From: a plasmid
Strand: one strand, 5' to 3'
Sequence record: NZ_LC532224.1
Length of the DNA: 64,000 nt
In this document: piece by piece, positions 828 through 51,847 of the stretch
Numbering within the stretch: position 1 is the stretch's first letter
Layout: the number at the start of each line of letters is the position of its first letter
Position numbers and translations under genes: made by a program
The notes under the pieces: generated by a model
What the model saw: only the letters and a program-made list of their open reading frames with translations
Told to the model about the DNA's origin: nothing
Database searches by the model: none

Positions 828-844
828 GTGAAAGTAACTTTAGG
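828..844. promoter_or_regulatory. Palindromic motif copy gtgAAAGTAACTTTagg
   Basis: Member of the recurrent GAAAAGTAACTTTTC family. Confidence 0.45.
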
Positions 845-1649
845 CCCCGCGAGCTTTTTCGATTGCGCCCTGCAAAGTTGCTGCGTCCATAGCCCCGGGG
901 ATAAATGTGGTAGTCGCCGCATTCGGCTTTTTCATATTCATAATGATGAAACCGGGTGTGCCGGTGATCCCGAGCGCTTCGCCCAGCTGCATATTGCCGG
1001 AGATCACGTTTTCATACCGGTTTTTTTCCCTGTCAGAAAACGTGCTGTTAAACCCTGACTTTTCCACCACAGTATTAAAGTCAGTGAGTTCGAATTTGCG
1101 TTGAGAGGTCATGAAGGTATGAGCCACAGCCATCAGGTTGTTGTGGTACTTACGATAGGCTTCAGCACCGAAATTCTGATAGACGTGCAGACCCGTAGCG
1201 GCCCCCATGGCAGATACAGGTTTTGAACCGGCAAAAATCGGGAATTCTTTAAAGAAGAATTTTACATCTTTGCTCTGATTCATTACCGATTCAACAACAG
1301 GTGTAACCCGCATGCAGTAAATACACTGATAGTCGAAGAACTCGATTACCGCGACGTCGGCGTCATCAGGGCCGATGTTTGGCGTCTCCTTGGTATCCAG
1401 CAGAGCTGGCGCATATGGAATTATTCGTTCCACTGAGGCACTCACGTTCTGATTTTCCAGCGCCTTACCTGCTTCCACTAAATAATGGGGATTTTTTACC
1501 AGGTAAGTAGCGGCAATTTTGCCAATTTCTTCCTCACTGAGCACCTTCGGTTTAAAATAAGTTGCCGTGATTAACGCCGAGGCAGCGGTAGCAATAACCG
1601 CAGAAATTAAAATCGTGGCCATCGGTTTTAAATAAAATTCTTTAGACAT
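840..1649 (-). CDS. DsbA-like thiol:disulfide oxidoreductase, membrane-anchored thioredoxin fold
   Basis: N-terminal hydrophobic anchor; CxxC active site CIYC; thioredoxin-like length and context next to conjugation genes. Confidence 0.65.
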   Translation of the reverse strand: MSKEFYLKPMATILISAVIATAASALITATYFKPKVLSEEEIGKIAATYLVKNPHYLVEAGKALENQNVSASVERIIPYAPALLDTKETPNIGPDDADVAVIEFFDYQCIYCMRVTPVVESVMNQSKDVKFFFKEFPIFAGSKPVSAMGAATGLHVYQNFGAEAYRKYHNNLMAVAHTFMTSQRKFELTDFNTVVEKSGFNSTFSDREKNRYENVISGNMQLGEALGITGTPGFIIMNMKKPNAATTTFIPGAMDAATLQGAIEKARGA

Positions 1650-1755
1650 AGCTACCTTTATGCTTTTCAGCCTGTTAGTTATTAACCTGCGATGGATTAT
1701 ACTGGCCCGGTAAATCGGAATTATTCGTGAAACAATGCTTTTTGGAGATTAAAGG

Positions 1756-2367
1756 ATGATTAGGCAGGGCTTTATACTCACAACCGCAATGCTTTTGAGT
1801 GGATGCGGATATCATTTCGCAAACCAGGTAGATGCGTACGATCTAATGCCTCGTCCTGTTACAAATAAAAGGTTTCAGATAGTCCCTCCGGACGAAAGTA
1901 TTCAGTCCAGAATGTTTTCAGGCCGTTTTGCTGATGGATTAGCAAAAAAAGGAGTCATTATTTCCACTCACCAGCCAGATTATGTGCTCAGGTTCCGAAT
2001 CAGCAGCTCACAGGAGAACATGCAGTATAGCGAGCAGCTTCTTACTGGGGTGACAGGCTACGTTGTAGATAAAAAGACAACGAGAACTGACAAGCATGGC
2101 GAATTGCATACTGACTATGACTACAAGCCAGTCGATGGGGTAATAGGCACTGAGACGATGTCGCAGATGCACTATATGCGACAGCTGGATGTCGAGGTAT
2201 ACCCGTCAGCGAAAGGAGCAAAGCAGGTTCTGAAAGTGAGTATGCAAAGCAATGCACCTGTGCCGTCAGACAGCATTGCTTATTCAGCAATGATCGACGC
2301 CTTTACTGATAAATTTGATGCGCCGCTGCGTTCCGGAAATTATGTTGCAGTGATCCCCTGGAACTGA
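1756..2367 (+). CDS. Lipoprotein (lipobox LLSGC)
   Basis: Signal peptide ending in LSGC; RBS ggag 9 nt upstream of ATG. Confidence 0.55.
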   Translation: MIRQGFILTTAMLLSGCGYHFANQVDAYDLMPRPVTNKRFQIVPPDESIQSRMFSGRFADGLAKKGVIISTHQPDYVLRFRISSSQENMQYSEQLLTGVTGYVVDKKTTRTDKHGELHTDYDYKPVDGVIGTETMSQMHYMRQLDVEVYPSAKGAKQVLKVSMQSNAPVPSDSIAYSAMIDAFTDKFDAPLRSGNYVAVIPWN

Positions 2368-2426
2368 AAGCAGACGGCGGGAAGAGAATGTTCAAAAGTG
2401 ACTTTTGGACACGCACATTAACGTGG

Positions 2427-2849
2427 CTATCGCCCTCCCCCATTAAAATCATAAAGTCGGTAAAGATCGCCCATCGTGATGGAATTGGGCTTATTAATGA
2501 ACAGATACTGTAACTGTTCTTTATGTTGAGTACTGGCAGCTGCATTCATAAGCACTTCCAGGTAGAACTTGTAGCCTATGCTTCGCTCTGAATACATATA
2601 CTGGAACTGCATCAGTAAAATGCCTGACATAACATACAACAGCAGCAGACTGAGTAATACAGTGCTATCAGGCTGTTCCAGTGCCATACTGACATACCCT
2701 GAACCCAGAATGCACAGAAGCCACCCCGTCATTAGAGCAGGCACCCTACGACTCAGACGTTTATAACAACGTTTTATTACGGGATCCCGGAGATACTTTT
2801 TGTCAGGTATCCCCGTTGCTCTGATGACGAAGCTACTGAGTATCGACAT
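2427..2849 (-). CDS. Hypothetical membrane protein
   Basis: ORF with two or three hydrophobic segments; no recognisable domain. Confidence 0.3.
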   Translation of the reverse strand: MSILSSFVIRATGIPDKKYLRDPVIKRCYKRLSRRVPALMTGWLLCILGSGYVSMALEQPDSTVLLSLLLLYVMSGILLMQFQYMYSERSIGYKFYLEVLMNAAASTQHKEQLQYLFINKPNSITMGDLYRLYDFNGGGR

Positions 2850-2882
2850 CTTTTTTCCTTCTGGACGCTCTCAGTCAATAAA

Positions 2883-3281
2883 TCAGGCCAGGCGCTCATT
2901 GAAAGCTACCACGAGCTGCGAATCGGGATTTTTTACCAGTTCGGGCCGGATAACTTTTAGTTGCCTCGTTGGGGCGAGCTCATCTGTAGGCCTGATGGTG
3001 GTATTACCCGGCCCCTTGCGGGTACTGTCGGTGTTTACCTTGAGCTTTTTATTTCCCAGGTAGCTTTCCATCTTTTTAGAGATGGTGTCACCTGTGGTCG
3101 CAACACCAGAGAGTTCCTTTAGATGTTCACCTTTATCCATTTGTACCGATGACATCAGAAATCCGATTCCGGGATCGTTTTCCGTTCCACAGGCTCCGTA
3201 CTGACATTGTGCAGCGAAAACGGGCTGTACACCTACAGCAACCAGCATTAACGTACTCAGTAAAGTAGATTTCATACACAC
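2883..3281 (-). CDS. Small secreted Cys-containing protein
   Basis: Signal peptide (MKSTLLSTLMLVAVGVQPVFA), CQYGACG motif; co-oriented with the DsbC-like gene. Confidence 0.45.
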   Translation of the reverse strand: MCMKSTLLSTLMLVAVGVQPVFAAQCQYGACGTENDPGIGFLMSSVQMDKGEHLKELSGVATTGDTISKKMESYLGNKKLKVNTDSTRKGPGNTTIRPTDELAPTRQLKVIRPELVKNPDSQLVVAFNERLA

Positions 3282-3292
3282 CTCTTACAGTC

Positions 3293-3310
3293 GGAAAAGT
3301 TACTTTTGCG
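3293..3310. promoter_or_regulatory. Palindromic motif copy ggAAAAGTTACTTTTgcg (upstream of 2883-3281)
   Basis: Motif family member. Confidence 0.45.
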
Positions 3311-4049
3311 CAGCGCCCATTTGGGTCACCAGGTTTTCCGGGCTCAGCCACCCCGTAAATAACTGCGGTTTGCCGCTTAGTGTCACCATGGTAGGAGTAC
3401 CTTGCAGCGGGATTGTTGAGGCCACCTGGAAATGCGATTTGATAATGTTTAAGCAAGCCTCATCAGGACGTCCTTCCGGGATAGTTGAAACCGGATTCAT
3501 CGCTGCATCCAGAGCTTCGTTTGGCTTTGCTGAACACCAGATTTTGGCCATGTTCCCGGCTACTACCGAGTTCAGTCCTGCACGTGGGAATGCAAGAAAC
3601 TTAATCGAAATACCGGCATCAAGATAAGACTTCAGATCATGATGCAGTTTTTGGCAGTATCCACAGGTTATATCGGTAAAGATAGCAAGCCGGTATTTTT
3701 CGTTTGGTGATTTGTAGTCGATGGATTTTGTTTTGGATGCGAATTCCCGGACGCCCATTAAAATGGCCTGCTCAGTGGTGTTTACCACATCTTTACCTTT
3801 CACGTGGAATAAGCTTCCGGTAAAAATGTAATCTCCGTCTTTGCTCACGTAACTTACCCCCTCCCTGGAAATCACCGTAAAAATATCTTTTACTGGCGAG
3901 GGTTCGACGTGCTCGATTGAAAGCCCAATGGCTTTGAGCTTATCCCGGGCTGCATCTGGCAGTACCATTGTATTAACCGGCTCGGCATTCATCGTGAAGG
4001 CGGTACTTAATGAAAGAAGTAATACCGATGCCTTAATAATTTTTTTCAT
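3300..4049 (-). CDS. DsbC/TrbB-like periplasmic disulfide isomerase of conjugation systems
   Basis: Signal peptide; CGYC active site; size and fold typical of DsbC-like proteins encoded in F-type/H-type transfer regions. Confidence 0.7.
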   Translation of the reverse strand: MKKIIKASVLLLSLSTAFTMNAEPVNTMVLPDAARDKLKAIGLSIEHVEPSPVKDIFTVISREGVSYVSKDGDYIFTGSLFHVKGKDVVNTTEQAILMGVREFASKTKSIDYKSPNEKYRLAIFTDITCGYCQKLHHDLKSYLDAGISIKFLAFPRAGLNSVVAGNMAKIWCSAKPNEALDAAMNPVSTIPEGRPDEACLNIIKSHFQVASTIPLQGTPTMVTLSGKPQLFTGWLSPENLVTQMGAAQK

Positions 4050-5376: not shown

Positions 5377-5382
5377 TGAACA

Positions 5383-5395
5383 AAGTAACTTTCCT
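5383..5395. promoter_or_regulatory. Palindromic motif copy AAAGTAACTTTcc (upstream of the HNH nuclease gene)
   Basis: Motif family member. Confidence 0.4.
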
Positions 5396-5499: not shown

Positions 5500-6561
5500 A
5501 TGCTGCATCACTGTCAGGCTAAGTCACTGGATGACATATACCTTGAGGATATTCCCCACATCATACATCCGGCCACGGCGGTACATGACCTCGAAGATAC
5601 CGCCCTGCCAAACCGGATTATTCAGGAATGGAATTTACCGCAGGGATATACACAGTTTGTCAGCCGGTATCACCAGTTCCACCATCAACGCCCCTGGCTC
5701 GCTTACCGCGATACGCTTGACGACATCAGATACGGTAAGATCGTTCTGCTTAGAAAAGACATAACCGGCAATGCCGGGCCGGGGGTTATATCAAATGGCA
5801 ACCTACGCAATGACCTGCCCCTGTCCCTCTTTACCCGTCTGCGCGATATCATCTCTCGTCAGTTGAAACGCCCGGGGTATTACGTTCGATCAACGACACC
5901 AGCACAGCACGCCCAATCAACAAAAACCATTAATTCCAAAGCGGCTGGTCGTCTTCTCGCAGCTGGCGGGCTTTATAATGGAAATGTGGAGGGATTTCGA
6001 CATACGGCTGAACAACTTGGCGGCGAAGCTGTTGAAGGCTATGACCAGGTATTGAACGAAACAACTTCAGGTATGCTGGTTGCAGCGGCTTCACTTCTGG
6101 TTATCCGAAATCCAAGGTCTGCGGATGAATTGACAAGTTATCTCGGCAAGTACAAAAAAGCACACGTTTTGCTCGATGATATGAATGTTAGCGAATTGAA
6201 CTACATGCGCCGAGACAGAGCTGAATATTTAGCTCTCCGTGGACAATTCAACAATACTGTACGCCCTAACTTCCTTAAATCACTTTCAGACCACCCAGAT
6301 GCCCTGGCTACGTTTGAACCTAACGATTTGATGAAACTTGCAACAGGCAAGGTCCCCTCTGGGTGGCAGGTTCACCACAAGATCCCTCTTGATGATGGTG
6401 GCACAAACGCTATAGACAACCTGGTACTTATTCAGAATTCACCATACCATTCAGCACTGTCGAAAGCACAATCCATCATTACGAAGGATCTACCGTATAA
6501 TTCAAGCACCAAAGTTCTATGGCCATCGCCGAACGGTGTTATCTACCCGGTAGGAAAGTAA
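5500..6561 (+). CDS. HNH/colicin-DNase-type nuclease domain protein; C-terminal motif WQVHHKIPLDDGGTNAIDNLVLIQNSPYH
   Basis: C-terminal 60 aa match the HH...GG...N...N...H pattern of colicin E9/pyocin-type HNH DNases and WHH-type polymorphic toxin domains; no delivery domain. Confidence 0.5.
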   Translation: MLHHCQAKSLDDIYLEDIPHIIHPATAVHDLEDTALPNRIIQEWNLPQGYTQFVSRYHQFHHQRPWLAYRDTLDDIRYGKIVLLRKDITGNAGPGVISNGNLRNDLPLSLFTRLRDIISRQLKRPGYYVRSTTPAQHAQSTKTINSKAAGRLLAAGGLYNGNVEGFRHTAEQLGGEAVEGYDQVLNETTSGMLVAAASLLVIRNPRSADELTSYLGKYKKAHVLLDDMNVSELNYMRRDRAEYLALRGQFNNTVRPNFLKSLSDHPDALATFEPNDLMKLATGKVPSGWQVHHKIPLDDGGTNAIDNLVLIQNSPYHSALSKAQSIITKDLPYNSSTKVLWPSPNGVIYPVGK

Positions 6562-6570
6562 GAGGCGCTC

Positions 6571-7077
6571 ATGAAAGATTTAACTCAACTACTCAGCAGC
6601 TTAAAGAGGTTGATGGTTGCAGATCACTACCCTTTAGCCAGCCCGGTAGCCCCGGAAGTCTTGAAAGACTTAATCTGCAATCCGCCTCCAGTGGAGTGGG
6701 CAGATCACAAAAAGAGCGCCTATATAGATATACAGAAACTCATTAAAACCAGGCTTGATTATGCCCAAGTGTTTAATGCTATGGATGGTTTTGAGTACAA
6801 CGGACTTACGTTTTATAACCTTGTTCAGGCAGAGAACGAAAATCTATTGTGGTCAAATATTTACATACGCAACTTTGAAGCACGAGACAATGAAATCTAC
6901 GTTGACCCAAATCTCACTGATAAGGTGTTAATCGGAGAAGATGGCATGTCACTTTTCGCTTATAGTTTTGCAGACGACTGCTTTCAGATAAGAGACAAAG
7001 CATCTACTGATTATGTTATTGAATCTCATACAGAGTTTGATAGATTTTTGTCTTCACTGATTCAAACCGTCAGTTGA
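6571..7077 (+). CDS. Hypothetical protein immediately downstream of the HNH nuclease (candidate immunity protein)
   Basis: 10-bp spacing from the nuclease stop, own RBS; acidic small protein. Position is the only evidence. Confidence 0.35.
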   Translation: MKDLTQLLSSLKRLMVADHYPLASPVAPEVLKDLICNPPPVEWADHKKSAYIDIQKLIKTRLDYAQVFNAMDGFEYNGLTFYNLVQAENENLLWSNIYIRNFEARDNEIYVDPNLTDKVLIGEDGMSLFAYSFADDCFQIRDKASTDYVIESHTEFDRFLSSLIQTVS

Positions 7078-7105
7078 ATGTTCCGCAAGAGCGGTACTTC
7101 TGAAA

Positions 7106-7136
7106 AAAAGGCCGCAAACACATACTTTGCGGCCTT
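7106..7136. terminator. Bidirectional hairpin (aaggccgcaaa-cacatac-tttgcggcctt) between convergent genes
   Basis: 11-bp perfect stem read directly; lies between the 6571-7077(+) stop and traG(-) stop. Confidence 0.5.
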
Positions 7137-7199
7137 AATTGTTTAGCAGTAATTTACAATCTATTGATAGTCATTTCAGGAGGTTATATTCAACCTCCC

Positions 7200-10100
7200 T
7201 TATTTTTTATTTTCATTAAGCCACTGATCCGCTTTATCGACACGTGACTGGTAAGGCTCATTTGTGTTGCTCAGCTCTGACTTCATGTACTGAATGAATT
7301 CATCTGCTTTCTGAGGCCCAAAGCGTGGGTCATCCGTCAATTGCTGCCGGATAGCCCTTTCAGAGTTCTGCGCTGCATTCGCATAAGTCGAAACGCCGTC
7401 GCTGCTAATACTCTGATACCGGTCACTTACAGCTGCGACGCCATCAGACATCTGCATGTGATTAAGGACTTTACCCTGGAGAGAATCAGGCATATTTGCA
7501 GGGTTAGAGGCATCATTTGCTATCGATGTCTGGGTTTGAAGGATGCCCGCTCCCGTAAGCATCTCATTTACCGGTTTCGCCCCAACGCTGGTTAGCGTAT
7601 CCGAAACAAATTGCTGGCCCCCGAGTAGCGCACCAGAAATCGCGCCCCGCTCAGTGTTGGCCTCTATCTTTTCCCCAACCAAGCGATCTGTGACGGTCTG
7701 AGTGCGGTTACCAACGAGACCACCGCCCGACCCACCTTCTCCCAGGTTTGCCCGTACGACTGACTCAAGTGAACCATCAGCTCTGTTATGAGTGTTGAAA
7801 CTGCTATGGATGCTCTTAACGTCATTCATACTCCAGTTAACGTTATAGTTACCCAGTTCATTAAGGATCTTCTGGGTATCCGCTTTGAGCTGCTCTCTTT
7901 CGGCACCGGTAGCCATGGTGCTGGCACCATAGGTAAAGACAGCTTGCTGTGCCAATTCAGCTCGCTTATCGTCCCGGCTTAAGTTCGGGTTGTTGGCAAC
8001 ACGACTAAAGTAGTTATCAGTGTTATTAGATAAGCCACGAACTTGCCCGCTCTGATACATACTGTTCAAAGCAGTGGCTCGTTGATCCATTCCATCACCA
8101 ACCACCCGACCTCCAACCTTTTCCAGATCGTTAAATGTGCCTTCTGCATTTCTGACATCCTGACCCGAATTGACGACTTTCTCTACACCCTGATTATTCA
8201 GTACAGGTCCATTCTTTTCGAGAGAATTAAGCACATTCCTTTCTTCATCAGAATAAGTGCGGCCCACGTTGTTGTTATGTATTCCCTGAATATCGCCTTT
8301 GCCCGCGTTATCAAGGTTATACGGAGTAAAGCCAGCTTCACTTTTTCCAGGGACATGCTGTGTCGCGTCCTGAGCGTTGGAGGAAAGACCGAGTTTAGCC
8401 TGCGAATCTACACTTCCACCCAGTTCCCCTACGCGTGACGCACTCATCACGCCAGACGTATTTACGCTGTCAGGAGTTCTATCCTGTGCCTGAGTGATAG
8501 TATTAATTCCTGACCCGTCACCTGAAATTCTGTCGAGCTGATTGGTGATAGGTAGCAGCTGCTGTGCATTACCACCGAAGTCGGAAACCAGACTTTTAAG
8601 CAGGCTGGAGGTTTCACGGAGATCCTGTTTATTACTTTCGGCCGTCTCTCCCCGGGCGGTATCAATCGCAATTTTTTGCTCACTGAAATCTCGGGTTGCA
8701 GCCACAAGCGCGTCAGTACGTTGAAGCTGCGATCCAAGCTGATTACTGGCCTTGAAGGTATCGTTATAGGAGTTGAATTTCTCCATAAACGCATTCTCAT
8801 CCAGCCCATTCTTACGAGCAAAATTCCTTACATCATCATCACTGAAGTTTTTGTTGCGAATAGAATCGGAGAACCTGTCCAGGTTAATGCTTTGTTTAGA
8901 ATCAAGGCTCATTCCACTATTGGAGCTTGCGTTAGTCGAAACCGATGTAGAAATATTTTGCGCCATCGTCTGTGTCGCCTGGTTCATTTTCGACGATGCT
9001 TCTTTAAACGCATTAGTATTGGATATCTGATCGCTGCTTACCTGAGACGCCGCTTTACTGAACTGGTCAGTTAACGCAGAATCCTGGCTAAGCTGATTCG
9101 TGATTGCTTTTGAAAGGTCATTTGAAAGCGAGTCACTGCCTGTATTGGTCTTAGATGCACCGCTACTCAATTGCCCTGCTACAGCCGCTTTCAGCCCGGC
9201 TCCATTGCCAGTTCCAACACCTCCATTAAGCCCAGCGTTGAGAATAACATTTGAAGCAATGCTGGCCATCTGAGACGCACTCACCCCATGTTTCGTTGCA
9301 ATACCTTCTGCTACAGAGGCACCAATCTTATCCGAGATCTGCTTCATTGTTTGCAGGTTGGTTGAGAACTGCTGGCTCGACTGTCCTGACCTTCCAATTT
9401 CGCTCATCTGACTGTAACCAGCCTGGAATGAATTACTTGCCGCACTCATAACTGATGAGGTTACAGCTGATCCTTGTCCCTGGCTGTTAGCGATACTTGA
9501 ACCAGCATTCCACATTCCAAGACGGAAATTACTTGAATCAACTGCGCCGCCATCGCTGTATCCCTGACCGGTACTGGTTAAGGCGGTTCGTGTCACGTCA
9601 CCAAATGAAGATTTACCGCTGTTAGGGCCATCCCATACTTTGGGCGTTACATGACCAGTATCCACCGGCGCATCGGGGGTCACTCCCTTAACCGCATTCA
9701 TCATCGGGTGAATCGACTGTGTCATCAGGAATAATGTGAGTACCGGAATCAGAGCATAGAGGGCGGAAGCAACAGACAGGTATGAACTGTATGTTTCCGC
9801 AAGCCCTGGGAGTCCCATCCACGTGACGGCATTATTCTGGCTGTTGAGGGTGCTCCAGGTATCCAAGTCGGCCGTCGCGACTTTCTTCACATACGCGTTG
9901 ACCATTACTGCCGTAAGCGGCCACATATTCACGAAGAGGATAAGTTGCAAATATTTCGCCGCAGCGGCAACACCATTACCACCTAACGCCAGCAGCATAA
10001 GCAAAGCAAATGGAGCAACCATATAAGCAAACATTTCAAGGAATGCGATTGCTGCTCCCGACAGTTGTAACCACAACTGGCCCTGTGAAGCCATTGTGTT

Positions 10101-11150
10101 GGTTCGCTTCAGAGAAGCCTCAAACAACTGCATATCGGAAGCCAGACCGAGTGGGGTCTTATATTTGCTTGCGCCATTTCTGAGCTCATTCATAATGAAC
10201 AGGTTCAGGGTGGCGTCATACGAACCAATAGCCTTACCGTACATACCATTTGCTGACGCCATAACATCAGTAAAGCTTGCGCCGGTAGGTGCACCATTTG
10301 CTTCGTCTGGAGTAAGGATGCCGTTTGTCTGTCCTATAAGGGAAATAGTCTGGCGAGCTTCAGCTGTACTGGTAACCTGTTTCACAGTTGACCAGACCTC
10401 ATCACACGTACCAGATTTTGAACCGTTAGCGCCAACAATACTGGCAGAGGCATTCTTCAGTGCGCCTTTCATCGCCTGATTAATCCGGTCCATGCTATCT
10501 GCCAGATTAGCTGAGAAAATATCGTTAAAAATAGTTTCTTTACCGGCAATATTTGCGCTTGAGTTTTGGGTAGCCTTCAGGCAGTTGTATGCAAGAGACT
10601 GAACGGTAGCACATACGTTCATTGGCCCTAGCCCGCTGGCCGGTTCAGGAAATGCGGAACAGTAGCCCTGGCTATCGCCGCCCCATTGCAAAAACTTCAC
10701 GAATCGGATCATCGGACCGAGGGTGATGTCATCGTCCAGAGTTGTTGCAGACAGGTCCACCGGAGAAAGCGGATCAAACGCTGTTTTATAATCCTTCAGC
10801 AAACCCTGGCTTAAGTTAGTGGTGACGGTTGCCATCGCAGCAATAAAAATTGGAATTCCGTCGACGTTTCTGACCTCTCCCGACTTTACAGATTCAATAG
10901 TTACATCCACTCGAACCATTGCCATCATGAAAAGGATCAACCCCAAAAACCAGGAGAAAAACGGTAATTCATTTTTGGTCGGAGCCTGAAGCCATAGCCA
11001 CGTTTTATAGAATAGGCTCACACCTGCTACAACGGCGGCCGTGGTCAGGAACTCTTTTACACCAGTATATTGAGAAAAGATCAGGGCAATACCGGTAAAA
11101 GCCGACCAGACAAAATCAATATCACCCAGGGTATATATGTTGTAATCCAT
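7200..11150 (-). CDS. traG: Conjugal transfer mating-pair stabilisation protein TraG/TrhG (F-type/H-type T4SS), 1316 aa
   Basis: N-terminal polytopic membrane domain followed by a large Ser/Gly/Asn-rich periplasmic domain; size matches TrhG of IncHI plasmids; synteny traF-traH-traG. Confidence 0.85.
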   Translation of the reverse strand: MDYNIYTLGDIDFVWSAFTGIALIFSQYTGVKEFLTTAAVVAGVSLFYKTWLWLQAPTKNELPFFSWFLGLILFMMAMVRVDVTIESVKSGEVRNVDGIPIFIAAMATVTTNLSQGLLKDYKTAFDPLSPVDLSATTLDDDITLGPMIRFVKFLQWGGDSQGYCSAFPEPASGLGPMNVCATVQSLAYNCLKATQNSSANIAGKETIFNDIFSANLADSMDRINQAMKGALKNASASIVGANGSKSGTCDEVWSTVKQVTSTAEARQTISLIGQTNGILTPDEANGAPTGASFTDVMASANGMYGKAIGSYDATLNLFIMNELRNGASKYKTPLGLASDMQLFEASLKRTNTMASQGQLWLQLSGAAIAFLEMFAYMVAPFALLMLLALGGNGVAAAAKYLQLILFVNMWPLTAVMVNAYVKKVATADLDTWSTLNSQNNAVTWMGLPGLAETYSSYLSVASALYALIPVLTLFLMTQSIHPMMNAVKGVTPDAPVDTGHVTPKVWDGPNSGKSSFGDVTRTALTSTGQGYSDGGAVDSSNFRLGMWNAGSSIANSQGQGSAVTSSVMSAASNSFQAGYSQMSEIGRSGQSSQQFSTNLQTMKQISDKIGASVAEGIATKHGVSASQMASIASNVILNAGLNGGVGTGNGAGLKAAVAGQLSSGASKTNTGSDSLSNDLSKAITNQLSQDSALTDQFSKAASQVSSDQISNTNAFKEASSKMNQATQTMAQNISTSVSTNASSNSGMSLDSKQSINLDRFSDSIRNKNFSDDDVRNFARKNGLDENAFMEKFNSYNDTFKASNQLGSQLQRTDALVAATRDFSEQKIAIDTARGETAESNKQDLRETSSLLKSLVSDFGGNAQQLLPITNQLDRISGDGSGINTITQAQDRTPDSVNTSGVMSASRVGELGGSVDSQAKLGLSSNAQDATQHVPGKSEAGFTPYNLDNAGKGDIQGIHNNNVGRTYSDEERNVLNSLEKNGPVLNNQGVEKVVNSGQDVRNAEGTFNDLEKVGGRVVGDGMDQRATALNSMYQSGQVRGLSNNTDNYFSRVANNPNLSRDDKRAELAQQAVFTYGASTMATGAEREQLKADTQKILNELGNYNVNWSMNDVKSIHSSFNTHNRADGSLESVVRANLGEGGSGGGLVGNRTQTVTDRLVGEKIEANTERGAISGALLGGQQFVSDTLTSVGAKPVNEMLTGAGILQTQTSIANDASNPANMPDSLQGKVLNHMQMSDGVAAVSDRYQSISSDGVSTYANAAQNSERAIRQQLTDDPRFGPQKADEFIQYMKSELSNTNEPYQSRVDKADQWLNENKK

Positions 11151-11158
11151 GTCAGACC

Positions 11159-12574
11159 TCAGTTACGTGTGCCACGAATACTTTCAGTGAAAGCCTTCCG
11201 TTGCAGGCGACGGTTATCCCAGGTTGAAATGACGTCCGAGCTGGTACCGACCTGGCTGTGCGATAGCTCATAGGCGGCTTTAACCTGTTTTGAGAGATTG
11301 TCTGTTAATCGGTTGAGATCATCCCTTTTACCCGACAGCGACTCACTCGGTATGCTCATGGTTGAAATTTTGGCCTCAACCTGGCGCAACATGTTGATTA
11401 CGAGGCTCGTCGCAGCAATAGTGCTGATGTCCTGAATGTATGCGTACCCTTCCGGTGCTTCGAATGTTTGCAAAGAGTCGATAATGGTCGGGATGCCGAT
11501 ATAGGAGATAATGCGTAATTCATCATCTGAAACACGAACGTCGTTGATGATTTTTTTCTGTACGTTTAAAAGAAGATCAGAAATGGTATCCTTCAATCCC
11601 TTAAAACCACCGTCATTAACTTCTGACATGACAAGGCACTGAGCCTTTCGTGGGGATGATGGATCTGGTGCCGGAGAACACTTGAGCATTTTAATTGATC
11701 CGCCAGCTGGTGGCCCCATGATGTAATCCGTGACAGTCATGGTAGACGGGCGGACTTCCATTCCCGCTTTTTCGCCTTTGCTATCCCAGTTGATAATGAC
11801 AGTACCTACGAGAGACATAAGTTGTTCTGCCAGTTTATAACCGGATAACTCCGTTACCCCTCCGATGTTCATCGTTCCCTTATCAATATCCATGAACGAC
11901 ATATAGAAGAGGTTACCACTGAATTTTTCAGCGAACTCTTCGGGATCCTTTGCTTTAACCTGAGAAGTGACAGCTTCAGGTGACTTTGTCATCGATGAGC
12001 CAAAATCAGGAATAAGACCATTAATCGATCCCAGAATTGAGGCTGGTCCAGAGCTAACTGAGTTAGCGAACTGGCTTGGCGTACCCACGTTTTCAGAAAG
12101 GAAAGAGTAAGTTGCATTGCATGAATCTTTCGCAAATTTATTTAGCGCTTGCAGTTTGTTTTGGATGTCATTAATCGTTGCAGCACAGTCAGCACAAATA
12201 GCTGAAACAGCAACGTTAAAAGCATAGATAGCCGCACCCTGGGCAATACCACGGGCCACCTGCACAAGCTGGTCCCCGTTGATCATGCTGAAGGACCCAA
12301 GAAAAACGTCAATACCGTTACAACCGACAGAAGCTTTTGGAAACGACATGGAAACAAGGTTGGTATTAACGTTTGTTGTTCGGTAAGACATTGACCCGCC
12401 AACTATGCCTGTACGGGTTGCTGTGGAAAAGGTGGCCGGGCTGGTAGACGTCATCATGCCATTGAAAATGTTACGCATTGCGTTGTCTGCATTTGCAGTC
12501 GGGGCTAAAATTGCAGCACAAACAGAAAGAGACAAAAGTAACTTTTTGAAGTTGAAAACGGCATTACTGCGCAT
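11159..12574 (-). CDS. traH: Conjugal pilus assembly protein TraH/TrhH; start moved to Met 22 with RBS GGAGG
   Basis: Signal peptide plus conserved TraH N-terminal region; RBS ggaggcactt before ATG at 12574. Confidence 0.85.
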   Translation of the reverse strand: MRSNAVFNFKKLLLSLSVCAAILAPTANADNAMRNIFNGMMTSTSPATFSTATRTGIVGGSMSYRTTNVNTNLVSMSFPKASVGCNGIDVFLGSFSMINGDQLVQVARGIAQGAAIYAFNVAVSAICADCAATINDIQNKLQALNKFAKDSCNATYSFLSENVGTPSQFANSVSSGPASILGSINGLIPDFGSSMTKSPEAVTSQVKAKDPEEFAEKFSGNLFYMSFMDIDKGTMNIGGVTELSGYKLAEQLMSLVGTVIINWDSKGEKAGMEVRPSTMTVTDYIMGPPAGGSIKMLKCSPAPDPSSPRKAQCLVMSEVNDGGFKGLKDTISDLLLNVQKKIINDVRVSDDELRIISYIGIPTIIDSLQTFEAPEGYAYIQDISTIAATSLVINMLRQVEAKISTMSIPSESLSGKRDDLNRLTDNLSKQVKAAYELSHSQVGTSSDVISTWDNRRLQRKAFTESIRGTRN

Positions 12575-14201: not shown

Positions 14202-14714
14202 TTAATCTAATTCTTCTTGAGAATACCTCTCTATGGCTGAAGCAGTTGAAGATAATCTGCAACGTGGACAGTGAGCATCATTTGTCACTGGCACAATGTA
14301 TGGGCGTTTACATTTTTCGCAGGCACCTAGTTCTTCAATTTCTTTCATAGAAGTAAGGATTTCTATTATTTTATTAACTTCCGGTGCGCATACAAAGTAT
14401 CCCAGATTATGAAGGACACTCATTATTCGGTTGAAGTCAATTTGCCGAAAACTCGCTTCCGGATTTATTGGATCAAAACCAAAATAGTTAACTGCGACAT
14501 CAATAACAGCAGAAAAGGCTCGGCGGTTATCTGTGCGTTTGCTCCAGCCCCGGATACCTTTTTTGAGTTTTGTTTTTGCACCAGGCTCAAAATCGATATT
14601 TTCAGCAACATGATTACCGTACAAAATTCGTATTGTATTTTTATTTGCCCCAAGCGACATAGTTCTTGCTGCTCGCAATAGAGCATTAGCTTTTGTTTGA
14701 TCGACCTTTGCCAT
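14202..14714 (-). CDS. Hypothetical protein with C-terminal zinc ribbon (CEKC...CPRC)
   Basis: CxxC-x16-CxxC motif; occupies the trhR/trhY-like position between the pilus operon and the putative oriT. Confidence 0.4.
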   Translation of the reverse strand: MAKVDQTKANALLRAARTMSLGANKNTIRILYGNHVAENIDFEPGAKTKLKKGIRGWSKRTDNRRAFSAVIDVAVNYFGFDPINPEASFRQIDFNRIMSVLHNLGYFVCAPEVNKIIEILTSMKEIEELGACEKCKRPYIVPVTNDAHCPRCRLSSTASAIERYSQEELD

Positions 14715-15588: not shown

Positions 15589-15606
15589 GTGAAAAGTAAC
15601 TTTTAG
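15589..15606. promoter_or_regulatory. Palindromic motif copy gtgAAAAGTAACTTTTag (75 bp upstream of 14716-15516)
   Basis: Motif family member. Confidence 0.5.
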
Positions 15607-16074: not shown

Positions 16075-16093
16075 GTCAAAAGTAACTTTAGGG
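16075..16093. promoter_or_regulatory. Palindromic motif copy gtcAAAAGTAACTTTAggg (upstream of the relaxase operon)
   Basis: Motif family member. Confidence 0.5.
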
Positions 16094-17495: not shown

Positions 17496-17498
17496 GGT

Positions 17499-34637: not shown

Positions 34638-34814
34638 TTATGCCGCCGACAGCTGGCCGTCAGTGCTTTGCTGTTCTGGTTTGACAGTTGGGGGATAACC
34701 GGCAGTTAGCCGCTGGCATTCCGCATCACAGAAAGCCCTGAGGTTGCTGAAGACGGACTCCATGAAATCAGCATGAGCATACGAGTCTACAGGACGTGTC
34801 TTGTTATCTTTCAT
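34638..34814 (-). CDS. Small hypothetical protein (start MKDNK after RBS GAGGAG)
   Basis: RBS; short ORF only. Confidence 0.25.
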   Translation of the reverse strand: MKDNKTRPVDSYAHADFMESVFSNLRAFCDAECQRLTAGYPPTVKPEQQSTDGQLSAA

Positions 34815-43231: not shown

Positions 43232-43435
43232 TTAAATCTGTGAAGTATATTTGAGAGATTTTTTGCGATCCAGATGCCGGGCAACAATGGTTCCGATAAC
43301 AAGTAGCGTGATGACCGCACTGAAGAAGGTGCTGTCAGGGACGCCCTGGAAAAAATCACTGAAACTGTAAACAATAAAAATCAATGCGCAAAAATAGAAA
43401 ACGATACGAACATAAGGGGTAAAAAACATTTTCAT
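43232..43435 (-). CDS. Small membrane protein, 67 aa
   Basis: RBS ggaaggcaaccgATG; two TM helices. Confidence 0.35.
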   Translation of the reverse strand: MKMFFTPYVRIVFYFCALIFIVYSFSDFFQGVPDSTFFSAVITLLVIGTIVARHLDRKKSLKYTSQI

Positions 43436-43572: not shown

Positions 43573-43592
43573 ATGAAAGTTACTTTCCTGGC
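43573..43592. promoter_or_regulatory. Palindromic motif copy gatGAAAGTTACTTTCctgg
   Basis: Motif family member; upstream of 43232-43435. Confidence 0.5.
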
Positions 43593-44831: not shown

Positions 44832-45311
44832 AGTGGCTTACCCGGCTAATAACCTGAGCAGAAAGTTTTCGAACTTAGTTTGAAAACAAGTTTTCTGCTC
44901 AGGTTAATGTTAAAGTCGCTGGGTAAAAGATAAAAGGCACTGAAGATGATTTAAGCATCAAACAGACTAAATAGGATTCCGTCTTTTATAACGCTTTTAA
45001 AATAGAATGAATGAAATATAAATTTTGCGTTTAAGAATGAACGCTGTAGAGGATGATTTATCCAGTGATATGCAGTTTGTGGCCTTTAAAAAGGCTTTAT
45101 TATGGACTTGAATTGCAAAGAGAGCACCGACATTTTTCTGGGGGCTCCCGCAGAGAAAAAGCTGTGAGGTTATGAAGACGTATAGGAGGTATTCGGCGAA
45201 ATACTGTATGGCCACAGGAGAGCTTCAGCACCCATATCCTGCCGCCTCGCTCGCCTGTGGTGATTTCAATATGTTCTACGTCATACCACGTAGTTGTATT
45301 TCTCACTTTGT

Positions 45312-45632
45312 TTATGCTTCCTGACACCGCGTGAACGCAATCTTCGTCTGGATGCGTTCATAGATGGAAAACTGCCTTTCAATGGAATCGGCATTAGACA
45401 GTAATTCATGAAGCTCAGCAGAATCTGTATCAGGAACGATAGCGACAGAAACTCCATATTTACGCCCAGTTCTGATCAGGTGCGCAAGTTTTTCCTTCTC
45501 TGATTCTGTGAGCATTGCCAGATCCCTTCCGGATACCTGCTCGATAAATGGACCAAGGTTTTTCGGAAAAAAGGGTTCGGCATCAGAATTATGTACCGGG
45601 AGCGTTTGCGGCTTATCGAAGCTATTGGACAT
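45312..45632 (-). CDS. Hypothetical protein, 106 aa
   Basis: ORF; motif copy about 150 bp upstream. Confidence 0.4.
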   Translation of the reverse strand: MSNSFDKPQTLPVHNSDAEPFFPKNLGPFIEQVSGRDLAMLTESEKEKLAHLIRTGRKYGVSVAIVPDTDSAELHELLSNADSIERQFSIYERIQTKIAFTRCQEA

Positions 45633-45780
45633 GAAAAGAACCTTTATAGTTAGAGAGGTGGAGACTGAATGCGTAGCCCATTAAAATTAGTAGTGCCACA
45701 CTCGAATGCTAATCATACTTTATGATGGCTATGGTAGGAATGGCCGTCAACTTAAACCGCCAGAAGCGAGCCATTCACCG

Positions 45781-45796
45781 TTAAAGTAACTTTCCC
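45781..45796. promoter_or_regulatory. Palindromic motif copy ttAAAGTAACTTTCcc
   Basis: Motif family member; upstream of 45312-45632. Confidence 0.5.
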
Positions 45797-45810
45797 GTAT
45801 GATGTTCTTT

Positions 45811-46041
45811 TTATGGAATGAGTTGTTCACACTCCTCTTTAAGAGCCGCCCTGGAACGAGATCGACAGACTTTGCTTAATGAAGAGCGTAATTGATGTTC
45901 ATCAACCCCATCAGCGACAAACTGACCAATTTTCTTTTCAAGACGCTGCATTGCCTCATAAAGCTTGGCATCAGTATTATTTTTAAGAAACCTCAGTATA
46001 TAATCAGCAATAATTTGAACAGGAGTAAAGTTACACATCAT
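45811..46041 (-). CDS. Hypothetical protein, 76 aa
   Basis: ORF only. Confidence 0.3.
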   Translation of the reverse strand: MMCNFTPVQIIADYILRFLKNNTDAKLYEAMQRLEKKIGQFVADGVDEHQLRSSLSKVCRSRSRAALKEECEQLIP

Positions 46042-46185
46042 GTATCCTTAATAAGTTGTGTAAAAATAAAACCATAAAAAACATAATCAGAAGTAGATTA
46101 TTATACTTGAGTAAGCTTTTCAGCTAACAAGCTGGAGAAGCAGATTCCGGTAAATTACTACATATTTGATAAAAGTTACTGAATA

Positions 46186-46212
46186 AAAAAGCCCAGCGTA
46201 CCGGGCTTTCAT
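46186..46212 (-). terminator. Rho-independent terminator of the kla operon (minus strand: aaagcccggtacgctgggcttttttatt)
   Basis: Hairpin plus T-run immediately after the klaC stop. Confidence 0.5.
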
Positions 46213-47106
46213 TCAATTTGATTCTAAGAATCTGACTCGCCGCCTGATTTTTATACCAAGAAGAGCGAACAAAACGCCAACGAATGCGACGGGACTACCT
46301 ACTTTAAGACAATTAACCGACGCTTTTGAAAAGGTATGTGATTTAGACATACGTTTTTGCTCATAACGAATCGCAAGTGGTGAGACGGATTTATCTAAAG
46401 CTGTCTTTTCCAATGCATAACGAACTTTCACGGGAATATTTGACTGTAATACACCAGACATATACGCCCTAACAACATTCTGTGTTAACTTCACATCTGG
46501 CTTGCCGAGTTTTATATGTAGTTGCGCCTTTAAATAGTTTACAGATACCTCTTCGCCTGAGGGCCAATTACTATCATTTAAATATGCGACAAGTTTATCG
46601 TATTTTTCATGTTTTACATATTTCTTGATAACCTTTACAGTCGAAGCTGAAGTGGCATCAGTCTCTTCCGAACCTAAAGCAGATGTAAAAACTGACAAGC
46701 CGATAAGAAAAGCGCCAGCAATTAGAAGCATCGGGAATATCTCACCTATTTCCTCCCCCTTTAAAATTTTAAAGGCAGTTGAAGAAACTACTAATAGCCC
46801 CATAATCCCTAATAGCAACTTAGAATATGTAGTTAGGAAGCCTCCAAATGCATCGCCAAAATCCGAAACCACTAACTTATCTTCACCTTCAGATGAATTG
46901 AAGAATGACAAGGGCACATCAATATCAAAGTCCAGAACTGAAGGTGAGAGGTGTAATGACAGCAACCACAAGCAAAGACCAAAAATCATTATCAGCAGGC
47001 CCGCACCAAATATCGCGAAACCTGAATTTCTAATCTTTATAGACCGGTGAAAAAGAAATGACAGTTCACGGGAAAAATCGTCACTACTCTTAAGGTTACG
47101 CACCAT
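46213..47106 (-). CDS. klaC: KlaC/TelB-like integral membrane protein of the kilA/tellurite-resistance operon
   Basis: Polytopic membrane protein as third gene after klaA-klaB(telA); size about 300 aa as in RK2 KlaC. Confidence 0.55.
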   Translation of the reverse strand: MVRNLKSSDDFSRELSFLFHRSIKIRNSGFAIFGAGLLIMIFGLCLWLLSLHLSPSVLDFDIDVPLSFFNSSEGEDKLVVSDFGDAFGGFLTTYSKLLLGIMGLLVVSSTAFKILKGEEIGEIFPMLLIAGAFLIGLSVFTSALGSEETDATSASTVKVIKKYVKHEKYDKLVAYLNDSNWPSGEEVSVNYLKAQLHIKLGKPDVKLTQNVVRAYMSGVLQSNIPVKVRYALEKTALDKSVSPLAIRYEQKRMSKSHTFSKASVNCLKVGSPVAFVGVLFALLGIKIRRRVRFLESN

Positions 47107-50241: not shown

Positions 50242-50306
50242 AATATTTAAATCACTCTTTAATTAGTAAACCACTGCTGATTAACTTCTTTTATGTTTCA
50301 CAGAAA

Positions 50307-50873
50307 TTATTCGTTTTGTTTCTGTTCGTTATACTGCTCAAACCAGAAGACGACCGGTTTTTCTACAATATGAAGCAACCCAAAACGTTCTGCGGTACGG
50401 AAATACACGCTATATGCGCGAGCCCGTTCAACCTGTTTGGTAATTTCTTTTCTCATTCCTTCAACACTAAAAGCTCCTTTAAAAAGGTTGCAGGGGGCGC
50501 ATGATGGAAATAAGTTTTCTATAGCATGCAGTTCAGGGTGCATAACCTTACCCGTACTTCGGGCAACATGAGTTACGCCGCTGCCGACAGGGGCTCTCAC
50601 CAGTTCAAAGTCGCGTCGAACAGGCTCAACATGATCGGCATGCCACCCTTTTTCAGGAAGCTTGCAACCACAATAGGCACAACGCCCCCCAAATTTCATT
50701 CGCAGCTCAGCTCGCTGTATTTTAGAGATCTTATTTTTAGGTTTTGAGAACCTACCATCAGGTGATTCAGCTTTGGATAACTTTGCTGAGGGCTCAGGTA
50801 ATTCAACTAAATTCCCGTTGATATTTATCACCTTGACCATATCATTTTCCGCCTTTACTAAGCTCACGGGCAC
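50307..50873 (-). CDS. HNH endonuclease (CxxC...HxxH...CxxC zinc-finger HNH)
   Basis: CAYCGC...HADHVEP...HPELHAIEN...CAPCN motif. Confidence 0.6.
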   Translation of the reverse strand: MPVSLVKAENDMVKVININGNLVELPEPSAKLSKAESPDGRFSKPKNKISKIQRAELRMKFGGRCAYCGCKLPEKGWHADHVEPVRRDFELVRAPVGSGVTHVARSTGKVMHPELHAIENLFPSCAPCNLFKGAFSVEGMRKEITKQVERARAYSVYFRTAERFGLLHIVEKPVVFWFEQYNEQKQNE

Positions 50874-50894
50874 AGGAACTGGCTTAAGTAACCG

Positions 50895-51089
50895 CTAAAG
50901 ATAACAGCCACTGACTGCATCTACCCAGACCTTCTGTTTATACTCAATAGGCCACCCCTCTTTATCTGCCCGGATGACGCAATCATTTACCGTGGTGCGT
51001 GACCGGATACGAACATCAAGCGGAAGCGAATCGTTATCCACACGAGCCTGTGCCTCATTTAAAATGCGTAAAAACATCTCTTTGGTCAT
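50895..51089 (-). CDS. Hypothetical protein, 64 aa
   Basis: Overlaps the downstream gene start (ATGA). Confidence 0.3.
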   Translation of the reverse strand: MTKEMFLRILNEAQARVDNDSLPLDVRIRSRTTVNDCVIRADKEGWPIEYKQKVWVDAVSGCYL

Positions 51090-51397
51090 TCAGATACCCC
51101 CTCAACTTTGCGAATTTTGATCAGATGAGGGCGACTCAGTTTACAAAGTTGTTCTGTCGCTTCATCAATCGAATTGAACCGATGAGCCTCTTCGATATTT
51201 AAAGTCCAGTATTTCGCTTTCCCTTCTCCCAGATCGGACTCAAAATAATTTCGCTTTACATCCATTTTTTTAGGCCTGCCATTTATCTTGACGACATTAT
51301 GTCTGTCATCAAAAAGAAATTCGTCCCCCTCAAAAGTGATTAATACAAATGGCCCCTCAGGCTTGGAAGTCCGGGAACTTTCCATTTTCAAAGTCAT
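51086..51397 (-). CDS. Hypothetical protein, 103 aa
   Basis: RBS gagaggctgaagtATG. Confidence 0.4.
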   Translation of the reverse strand: MTLKMESSRTSKPEGPFVLITFEGDEFLFDDRHNVVKINGRPKKMDVKRNYFESDLGEGKAKYWTLNIEEAHRFNSIDEATEQLCKLSRPHLIKIRKVEGVSE

Positions 51398-51459
51398 ACT
51401 TCAGCCTCTCGATAGAACTCATGAAACGTCAAATTAAAATGGACTCACACCACACTGAT

Positions 51460-51699
51460 TCAGTATTCCTCCTGAACCCCATTAGGCTCTGTTGTGATTT
51501 CATATTTAATTCCGCCAGGTGCTCCCACAGCGTCCGCGACCGACTCACACAGCAGCGAGAGATCGTTGAGGGTCATTGGGTGTTCAATGTCCAGCGTGAA
51601 GAGTTTCCCGGCTTGCTTGGCGGCTGTCTTGTCAGCATGTTCGGCATTAAAAAGGTATACGGTGTGTTTTTCCTGAGCGGGTGTATTTTGATTTTGCAT
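51460..51699 (-). CDS. Small conserved protein, paralogue of 42953-43177
   Basis: Shared core motif; palindromic motif 130 bp upstream. Confidence 0.45.
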   Translation of the reverse strand: MQNQNTPAQEKHTVYLFNAEHADKTAAKQAGKLFTLDIEHPMTLNDLSLLCESVADAVGAPGGIKYEITTEPNGVQEEY

Positions 51700-51829
51700 T
51701 GATGATCCTTTTGTTTAGTTCCCCGATTCCGGGGGTGAGTGAATTAATTTAAATTTATATTCGTCTGGTTTAATTAGAACGTTTCCACGCTATGCGTAAA
51801 CAGGTAATGCAAGGGCTGTATCAACAGGA

Positions 51830-51847
51830 TTAAAGTTACTTTTCTGG
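51830..51847. promoter_or_regulatory. Palindromic motif copy ttAAAGTTACTTTTctgg
   Basis: Motif family member; 130 bp upstream of 51460-51699. Confidence 0.5.

Follow-up and report, generated by a model that had tools for sequence, protein, structure and literature searches.

A dispersed palindrome of the IncHI plasmid backbone and an orphan ParB/KorB-like protein as its candidate binder

The stretch of DNA analysed here (the window; 64,000 nucleotides of the plasmid record NZ_LC532224.1) belongs to the backbone of a plasmid of incompatibility group HI2 (IncHI2), namely to its Tra1 region, and it carries many copies of one short perfect palindrome, AAAGTWACTTT. About 50 copies of this palindrome are dispersed over the backbone of each complete IncHI plasmid scanned, as independent sites that are under purifying selection at the DNA level, in genes as well as between them. 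They are read here as high-affinity sites of one protein, most likely an orphan ParB/KorB-like protein encoded in the window (P-A in the following), which would bind them as a dimer; this reading, which covers IncHI1, IncHI2, IncHI1B and uncharacterised relatives, is given a probability of about 0.5. The IncHI group ranks among the major carriers of multidrug resistance in Salmonella Typhi, mcr-1 and carbapenemases. Transfer of these plasmids depends on temperature through a circuit made up of HtdA, TrhR/TrhY and H-NS/Hha, the DNA targets of which are largely undefined.

Exact copies of the palindrome number 14 in the window, whereas the expectation from dinucleotide-preserving shuffles is 0.13; none of these shuffles (0/100) reached 14. 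Its 15-mer form at up to two mismatches has 11 matches against 0.17 expected. The site has a 5+1+5 geometry and an extended form, (g)A-AAAGT-W-ACTTT-T(c), which can also be written AAAGTNACTTT. The family is sharp, since the 14 perfect copies are accompanied by only 6 with one mismatch, about 2 of these being expected by chance; in three additional copies the centre base is G or C (2395, 15152 and 19502; Table 1). A preliminary description of this DNA, made from the sequence alone, had proposed such a family with 12 or more intergenic copies. The family is real and every site listed at that time is present, although one exact copy, inside trhH (12535-12545), had been overlooked, and the count itself changes to 11 copies that are intergenic or at gene ends and 3 that are intragenic. 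The sequence at 46171-46184 (AAAAGTTACTGAA), previously taken for a half copy, is a remnant with three mismatches and not significant. It was also an overstatement that nearly all copies lie upstream of operon starts, as only about 8 of the 14 are found 77-223 bp upstream of a start codon. The genes with a site upstream are trhR, mobI, an HNH gene, the P-A gene (two sites) and the genes starting at 27408, 43435, 45632 and 51699.

The scan of whole replicons and of related plasmids that had been suggested extends the family beyond this element, to about 50 copies per plasmid throughout the IncHI superfamily. The complete plasmid R478 (IncHI2, 274.8 kb) contains 47 exact copies, or 54 with any centre base, against 0.24 in block shuffles, and R27 (IncHI1, 180.5 kb) contains 42, or 46 with any centre base, against 0.14. 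When all palindromes of the form 5+0/1+5 were counted de novo, this motif ranked first in both plasmids by more than fivefold, with 54 against 8 in R478 and 46 against 4 in R27. It likewise headed the palindrome counts of all the more distant IncHI-like sequences examined, a set made up of one plasmid of the IncHI1B type (34 kb with 12 copies), contigs from Yersinia intermedia, Leclercia, Buttiauxella, Pseudocitrobacter and Klebsiella grimontii, and two metagenomic contigs that are still more distant. Accessory and unrelated DNA is free of it: R478 has no site in its accessory bins at 60-70, 80-110 and 120-140 kb, which include metal-resistance blocks, and there is none in 40 kb of an IncC plasmid or in a 21-kb unrelated contig, giving zero sites in about 120 kb of control DNA.

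Two observations on this distribution may be added. The IncHI1B-type plasmids have a higher density of sites (12 in 34 kb; 9 in 7 kb), including tight clusters of 4-6 copies within 330-750 bp (19122-19871 in one stretch, 210-541 in another) that resemble a centromere or loading array more than single operators. In R478, an exact copy at 115078, inside a TnsA-like gene of a Tn7-like element, is the sole case in apparent accessory transposon DNA; its R27 counterpart is absent, and it may be a chance occurrence.

With respect to genes, 30 of the 54 sites of R478 fall outside annotated coding sequence, in 18.6% of the plasmid (p = 1.6e-9), and plasmid-wide about 60% of the sites are intergenic and about 40% intragenic. 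The intergenic sites of R478 lie mostly 59-301 bp upstream of a start codon, many of them at 95-225 bp, and some of the intragenic ones are 11-150 nt from the start of their gene or just ahead of the next gene, while convergent gene ends also hold sites (831; R478 175717). The R27 site 11569 lies in the R0009-trhP intergenic region, for which promoter activity has been shown experimentally, and thus at least some of the sites are located in real promoter regions.

The comparison of R478 with R27 by blastn, in which the flanks of the sites are 65-85% identical, found the full motif at the orthologous position in 25 of the 27 covered sites, and an R27 copy within 300 bp in 10 of the 15 sites for which only a flank could be aligned. 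At the third codon positions of intragenic sites, 48 of 50 (96%) are identical in the motif, compared with 43% in the flanking codons; over all positions of these sites the values are 97.8% and 71.8%, respectively, and at alignable intergenic sites they are 100% (80/80) and 74%. The intragenic copies span all three reading frames (KVT[LF], [EK]SNF and KKLLL) and thus do not encode one repeated peptide. The conservation of third codon positions and of intergenic copies therefore reflects purifying selection on the DNA itself. Furthermore, because the 40% of copies inside genes are as strongly conserved as those between them, the sites are not simply promoter operators.

Outside the palindrome little is shared. 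The flanks have a mean pairwise identity of 29% (maximum 46%), their information content is at background beyond +/-7, and the alignment of 24 oriented intergenic sites has no conserved column outside -7 to +7. Thus, the conserved flanks of the preliminary description hold at +/-6 (A/T, 69%) and +/-7 (G/C, 45%), the sequence beyond being random. The only point in favour of chance matches, or of remnants of a small mobile repeat such as a miniature inverted-repeat transposable element (MITE), is that the motif is short and A+T-rich. This explanation, already the most improbable of all, was refuted by copy numbers far above expectation in both the window and R478, by the unrelated flanks, which indicate independent sites as had been supposed, and by the conservation of orthologous positions between plasmids that are about 72% identical.

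The orientation of the centre base relative to the downstream gene is 12:12 among the 24 oriented intergenic sites. Such a perfectly symmetric 5+1+5 site implies a dimeric binder, in agreement with the preliminary description. In R478 the centre base is A in 29 copies and T in 18, without positional pattern; an oriented signal comparable to Chi or to the FtsK-orienting polar sequences (KOPS) was ruled out by this patternless polarity.

P-A had been named before among the candidate regulators, and it now ranks as the best candidate binder. It consists of an N-terminal ParB-type domain, a helix-turn-helix (HTH) at residues 149-209, a disordered linker at residues 256-323 and C-terminal helices. 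The HTH is matched by the Pfam family PF17762 HTH_ParB (26.6 bits, cut-off 22.6, residues 149-209), and phmmer matches the protein to the HTH of Caulobacter ParB (6s6h, 6t1f). In the AlphaFold2 (AF2) model, residues 1-255 have a predicted local distance difference test score (pLDDT) mostly of 85-95, whereas the C-terminal helical domain is modelled at low confidence. The Foldseek search of this model against the PDB returned KorB of RK2 as the top match (8qa9; E = 2.5e-8, target template modelling score 0.66), in spite of a sequence identity of only about 18%, followed by ParB (7bnr, 6t1f, 1vz0) and Noc (7ol9), over about 220-237 columns. Family alignments contain the invariant blocks GFNTR, RQGACRxR[AS] and GN, which correspond to ParB Boxes I-III. 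The variant Box II of P-A, RQGACRIRS, retains the Gly and two Arg but has the first Arg and the Glu replaced, and its Box III retains the Asn, with GN in place of EN. No ParA-binding motif of the type [LFI]G[KR]G[LFI] (as defined in PMC12704722) is present in the P-A sequence, and no parA is found among its neighbours, which are small hypothetical genes (32690-32971 and 34638-34814). P-A is thus an orphan ParB and not a partition ParB.

The palindrome is a constant neighbour of the P-A gene. Perfect sites, from 1 to 6 within 900 bp upstream, occur in all 8 lineages examined, namely 2 in IncHI2, 2 in IncHI1, 6 within 870 bp in IncHI1B (where the protein is 35% identical), 5 in K. grimontii, 3 in Pseudocitrobacter, 2 in Yersinia, 2 in Buttiauxella and 1 in Leclercia. 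Over the same range of divergence, from 100% to about 35% identity, the predicted recognition helix of P-A keeps the pattern [ST]-x-x-H-[LIV]-R, and no lineage was found in which motif and helix had changed together. The family is small, with 403 hits at E <= 1e-3 in a profile search of 1.84 billion representative proteins, and a related-locus search of genome contigs for distant relatives gave four loci, all of them IncHI-like. IncC-type relatives of P-A, of about 300-330 amino acids, are not associated with the motif.

In the mechanism proposed here, P-A dimers would occupy the approximately 50 palindromes through the ParB-type HTH, comparable to KorB at its operator OB, Noc at its binding sites (NBS) and VirB at virS, possibly with nucleotide-dependent clamping. 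The two sites upstream of its own gene would provide autoregulation, and the remaining ones would influence nearby backbone promoters, typically 60-300 bp away, by either KorB-like repression at a distance or VirB-like antagonism of H-NS silencing. Because IncHI plasmids are under H-NS and Hha control, both signs of the effect are plausible. P-A would then represent a cis/trans layer of the plasmid-wide regulon seen in R27 transcriptomes, where mutation of htdA derepresses 139 of the 181 expressed genes at 25 °C, with the transposon, tet, cit, muc and parAB genes not among them (PMC7366339). This split between backbone and accessory genes mirrors the backbone-only distribution of the motif. 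If the gene-order mapping holds, P-A is R0104 of R27, the expression of which is equal at 25 and 37 °C (2196 and 2155; PMC7366339), as would be consistent with autoregulation.

Several points weigh against P-A as the binder. The motif is accompanied by P-A, a second ParB-like protein (P-B), TrhR/TrhY and HtdA alike in each of the IncHI-like plasmids seen, so that these candidates cannot be separated by co-occurrence, and the sites upstream of P-A are suggestive but not unique, because many other intergenic regions have conserved sites. The 40% of sites that are intragenic are not needed by a simple operator model. The absence of a canonical GERRxRA Box II and the presence of GN instead of EN make CTP-dependent clamping uncertain, and nucleotide binding cannot be judged from sequence (PMC12704722). 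Gene order is the sole basis on which R0104 is equated with P-A. No convincing KorA-like co-operator motif emerged from k-mer enrichment within +/-100 bp of 100 sites, and scans of six sites for the sigma-70 consensus yielded hits at no higher rate than in shuffles, the distances to -35/-10 elements being inconsistent. Lastly, P-B has sites of its own: a conserved one-mismatch variant, AAAAGGTACTTTT, is located 81-95 bp upstream of its gene in R478 (270102) and R27 (45096), and the P-B orthologs of IncHI1B and of a metagenomic contig are preceded by exact sites, at distances of 117 bp and 33 bp.

These last sites raise the question of whether P-B, alone or together with P-A, is the binder. Like P-A, it combines a ParB HTH with an N-terminal ParB domain. 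Among the genes of R27, where it is R0042, it is one of the most strongly expressed, and its expression increases under every condition that promotes conjugation. The two proteins cannot be told apart by phylogenetic distribution, both being present in the same approximately 2,390 plasmid records. However, the predicted recognition helix of P-B varies (SPTTIS, SNTTIA, SEMAVR, SEQNIR, TTAYVK) across lineages that share an identical motif, which is the reason for ranking it below P-A, and the site upstream of P-B in R478 and R27 is imperfect, whereas P-A always has perfect ones; P-B is therefore left with a slim chance. As to its surroundings, the P-B gene sits between a Dam methylase and a DUF4942 gene, and the contig of one distant relative contains a third ParB-like gene (6559-7443). 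A different possibility is that a ParB-like protein does bind the sites but that its main role is architectural, in the organisation of a plasmid of 180-400 kb, as in Noc-like tethering, ParB-like bridging or condensation, an auxiliary centromere, or the handling of the strand that arrives by transfer. The intragenic sites, conserved as strictly as the intergenic ones, would fit such a role, as would the sites between convergent gene ends (831; R478 175717), the occurrence of perfect copies instead of a graded affinity series, like parS and NBS, and the presence of Noc and chromosomal ParB among the top structural matches of P-A. On the other hand, the threefold intergenic enrichment and the clustering 60-300 bp upstream of start codons are unexpected for purely architectural sites, P-A has neither an adjacent parA nor a ParA-binding motif, and IncHI plasmids already carry ParAB-type and ParMR-type partition genes, both systems being reportedly functional, as Lawley and Taylor are said to have found in 2003; a primarily architectural role is thus considered unlikely.

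TrhR and TrhY deserve similar attention, since the motif could be the DNA box of this pair or of the HtdA-TrhR/TrhY circuit, in which case the TrhR/TrhY set free in an htdA mutant would activate every site-bearing backbone operon. In R27 the F, H, AC and Z operons are subject to joint activation by the two proteins, an effect opposed by HtdA (PMC7366339), and the derepression described above includes most non-tra backbone genes but not the accessory genes, a split that mirrors the motif distribution. Exact sites are present upstream of the H operon (16079) and of the Z operon (R478 20627), centre-G/C variants are found about 250-280 bp upstream of trhA in the AC operon, a conserved site lies 80 bp upstream of trhR and another copy inside this gene, and no definition of a DNA site for TrhR/TrhY was found in the literature. 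Nevertheless, the promoter region of the F operon, the clearest target of TrhR/TrhY, has nothing within 3 mismatches of the 13-mer, either in the IncHI2 window or in R27. The motif is thus absent from at least one promoter that depends on the pair, which makes TrhR/TrhY a weaker rival. Moreover, the R operon carries a site yet is reported to be HtdA-independent (PMC7366339), and TrhR and TrhY have no recognisable HTH and no sequence match in Pfam, NCBIfam or the PDB. A heteromeric activator is an odd fit to a perfectly symmetric palindrome of 11-13 bp without preferred orientation, nor would an activator that acts close to promoters be expected to have strongly conserved sites inside genes, so that this explanation, too, appears doubtful. 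TrhY has an invariant C-terminal, zinc-ribbon-like CxxC-N13-CxxC (C132, C135, C149, C152) that recalls the activator subunits of FlhC/AcaC type in related MOBH elements, although its AF2 model (pLDDT 53) is too poor for a fold comparison to FlhC. It is very improbable that the palindrome is the site of a chromosomal host factor common to Enterobacterales and recruited by the backbone. Plasmids from Serratia, Salmonella, Enterobacter, Klebsiella, Yersinia, Leclercia and Buttiauxella hosts all carry the identical motif, but it follows the plasmid lineage and not the host, it is absent from accessory DNA of the same plasmids and from IncC DNA in the same hosts, and fifty perfect copies on one replicon are atypical for a host regulon. 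To our knowledge, there is no enterobacterial regulator with this consensus.

If P-A is the binder, a broader and more tentative idea can be formulated, namely that it is a divergent ParB-fold protein, possibly hydrolysis-dead or CTP-independent, which silences or anti-silences the whole 180-400 kb IncHI backbone via about 50 invariant loading sites, including intragenic ones under selection, and which might be the missing cis/trans link between HtdA-TrhR/TrhY, H-NS/Hha and the temperature-dependent switch of expression across the plasmid. This would amount to a counterpart of KorB and VirB on a fourfold scale, in the family of plasmids that bears typhoid multidrug resistance as well as mcr-1. 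Three quarters of the R27 genes are derepressed by one mutation, with no cis element to explain it, and a conserved palindrome with a candidate binder offers a testable handle; the motif is also a simple sequence marker of IncHI-type backbone DNA. In line with the preliminary description, which did not recognise the sequence, no paper on the motif or on an IncHI plasmid-wide operator was found by string searches of the 10-/11-mers and by keyword searches, from which most subscription journals and the original R478 paper were outside the scope, and the words 'motif', 'operator' and 'palindrome' are absent from the R27 transcriptome paper (PMC7366339).

Regarding the surroundings of the sites, bases 14000-36000 of the window match many IncHI2A plasmids of Enterobacter (MOBH relaxase, MPF-F) at 100% identity, and the layout of its first half was taken from the annotation of one such plasmid and from the reference plasmid R478 (Table 1). 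The origin of transfer, oriT, presumably lies in the trhR-mobI gap, as in R27. Beyond the H operon come about 30 kb in which most genes are small and hypothetical, broken by insertion sequences. The region 26700-53900, downstream of the relaxase operon, contains about 35 small, mostly hypothetical genes, all on the minus strand, and several short transcription units in it each have a motif copy 135-170 bp upstream (27572, 43576, 45783, 51832). The insertion sequences differ from those of R478: an ISVsa5/IS10 end (window 1-794) stands in place of umuDC beside dsbA, IS903B is inserted at 31268-32236, where the neighbouring hypothetical gene is shortened to 186 amino acids (233 in R478), and an IS4-family (IS421-like) element occupies 38875-39993. 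No motif copy has been removed by these insertions. Among the variants, the centre-G copy at 2395 constitutes weaker evidence of function, as it has no R27 counterpart.

Table 1. Copies and centre variants of the palindrome in the window, the two ParB-like genes and the conjugation genes, with strand and counterparts in R27 or R478
Feature	Position	Strand	Location or description	Counterpart
Motif copy AAAGTAACTTT	831-841		3' end of dsbA (840-1649, minus)	Motif retained at R27 orthologous position; R478 equivalent between convergent ends of umuC and dsbA
Centre-G variant AAAGTGACTTT	2395-2405		Between genes 2020-2367 (plus) and 2427-2687 (minus)	Absent from R27
Motif copy AAAGTTACTTT	3296-3306		24-bp intra-operon gap, thioredoxin-fold gene (3300-4049, minus) / gene 2883-3275 (minus)	R27 orthologous position is AAAGTCACTTT
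Motif copy	5382-5392		108 bp upstream of HNH endonuclease gene (5500-6561, plus)	
Motif copy	12535-12545		Inside trhH, 34 nt from start, overlapping 3' end of thioredoxin-family gene	Conserved in R27
Centre-C variant AAAGTCACTTT	15152-15162		Inside trhR	R27 orthologous position is AAAGTTACTTT
Motif copy	15593-15603		77-82 bp upstream of trhR (14716-15516, minus), edge of trhR-mobI gap	Conserved in R27 (108821)
Motif copy	16079-16089		192 bp upstream of mobI/traH (16276-16761, plus), first gene of H (relaxase) operon	R27 site <=300 bp from projected position (108336)
Centre-C variant AAAGTCACTTT	19502-19512		Inside MobH relaxase gene	Absent from R27
Motif copy	20940-20950		Inside coupling-protein gene (20651-22735), 289 nt from start	R27 orthologous position conserved
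Motif copy	22670-22680		Inside coupling-protein gene, ~60 nt before end	Conserved in R27
Motif copy	27572-27582		164-169 bp upstream of hypothetical gene 27124-27408 (minus)	R27 site near projected position (97181)
Proximal copy at P-A	34312-34322		91-96 bp upstream of ParB-like gene	Conserved in R27 (92231 or 92113) and all other lineages
Distal copy at P-A	34439-34449		218-223 bp upstream of ParB-like gene; only perfect 15-mer, GAAAAGTTACTTTTC	Conserved in R27
Motif copy	43576-43586		~145 bp upstream of small gene 43232-43435 (minus)	R478 227998
Motif copy	45783-45793		~155 bp upstream of gene 45312-45632 (minus)	R478 230205
Motif copy	51832-51842		~135 bp upstream of gene 51460-51699 (minus)	R478 236254
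P-A gene	33037-34221	minus	ParB/KorB-like protein, 394 amino acids, WP_001272971.1; best candidate binder	
P-B gene	Outside window	minus (R478)	Orphan ParB-like paralog, annotated 'partition protein' (R27)	R478 268858-270021; R27 45191-46348 (R0042)
dsbA and dsbC-like genes	First part of window			
F operon	7200-13610	minus	trhG, trhH, thioredoxin-family gene	
trhY	14202-14714	minus	IncHI conjugation activator pair with trhR; identity by synteny	R27 R operon
trhR	14716-15516	minus	IncHI conjugation activator pair with trhY; identity by synteny	R27 R operon
H operon	16276-22735		mobI, MobH relaxase, coupling protein	

Among the known systems, the AcaCD/SetCD boxes of IncC and SXT/R391 (PMC4207636, PMC4542580) also define an element-wide regulon over tra operons in the MOBH/MPF-F family, and TrhR/TrhY fill the equivalent activator role in IncHI. 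However, those boxes are promoter-proximal activator sites that serve a heteromer of the FlhDC type, lack the form of a compact perfect palindrome and occur at all activated promoters, whereas the IncHI motif is missing from the F-operon promoter and from IncC DNA. The IncC plasmid NC_022522.2 contains a palindrome of its own, the 18-bp perfect ACTTTCACATGTGAAAGT, which occurs six times in 40 kb (3438, 3897, 9221, 12557, 24029, 27444), one copy being 62 bp upstream of parA, beside a 'KorB domain-containing' ParB. Its core, TTTCAC..GTGAAA, resembles chromosomal parS, and its outer arms (ACTTT...AAAGT) correspond, in everted order, to the arms of the IncHI site, perhaps by coincidence; IncC plasmids may thus have their own dispersed network of ParB or KorB sites.

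Noc of Bacillus subtilis (7ol9, 6y93) is, like P-A, an orphan ParB paralog without a ParA partner, and its NBS are dozens of near-perfect palindromes spread over the replicon, many of them inside genes; B. subtilis has about 70. Unlike the IncHI sites, NBS are not enriched upstream of genes, and Noc is a chromosomal protein that acts in the control of cell division and tethers DNA to the membrane via an N-terminal amphipathic helix, none being evident in P-A. VirB is an orphan ParB-like protein of a large enterobacterial plasmid as well, with inverted-repeat sites upstream of promoters, often distant ones. It relieves H-NS silencing on the thermoregulated virulence plasmid of Shigella (PMC10770331), and IncHI conjugation is likewise a matter of an H-NS-silenced, temperature-regulated plasmid (PMC7366339). 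By analogy, P-A might conceivably have an anti-silencing function. VirB is nonetheless related to the P1/F-type plasmid ParB, whereas P-A matches the HTH of chromosomal-type ParB, KorB and Noc; virS sites are few and imperfect; and VirB is thermo-induced, in contrast to R0104, if this is P-A.

The closest parallel is with KorB and OB of the IncP-1 plasmid RK2, which is said, from work of the Thomas laboratory, to have 12 OB sites, which are classed as promoter-proximal, as promoter-distal or as remote or intragenic. KorB is a plasmid-encoded protein of the ParB family and the best match of the P-A model; it loads at OB in the form of a clamp that depends on CTP, and the promoters it silences may be distant (McLean et al. 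2025, PMC11790492). The OB sites are identical short perfect palindromes (core TTTAGCGGCTAAA) dispersed on the backbone, at promoters, more than 1 kb away from them or inside genes, with a site at the operon of the regulator itself, and the IncHI motif likewise has many identical dispersed sites and, as judged by position only, sites at the gene of P-A. The IncHI site differs in its unrelated sequence, in the odd-length spacer of its 5+1+5 geometry and in its number (about 50 against 12). P-A differs from KorB in having no adjacent ParA (IncC) partner or ParA-binding motif, no detected KorA-like second operator, a Box II without the Glu and the first Arg (GACRIRS), and a C-terminal domain that is predicted, at low confidence, to be helical instead of SH3-like. 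Thus, a ParB-fold protein that acts through dispersed palindromes as a global plasmid regulator is a kind of system already known from KorB, and what is new here, besides the lack of a detectable co-operator, is the sequence and geometry of the site, the number of about 50 sites, the orphan protein and its divergent nucleotide-binding pocket. If P-A is indeed the binder, it would provide the second large-scale example, in clinically dominant plasmids, of ParB-fold proteins as global gene regulators.

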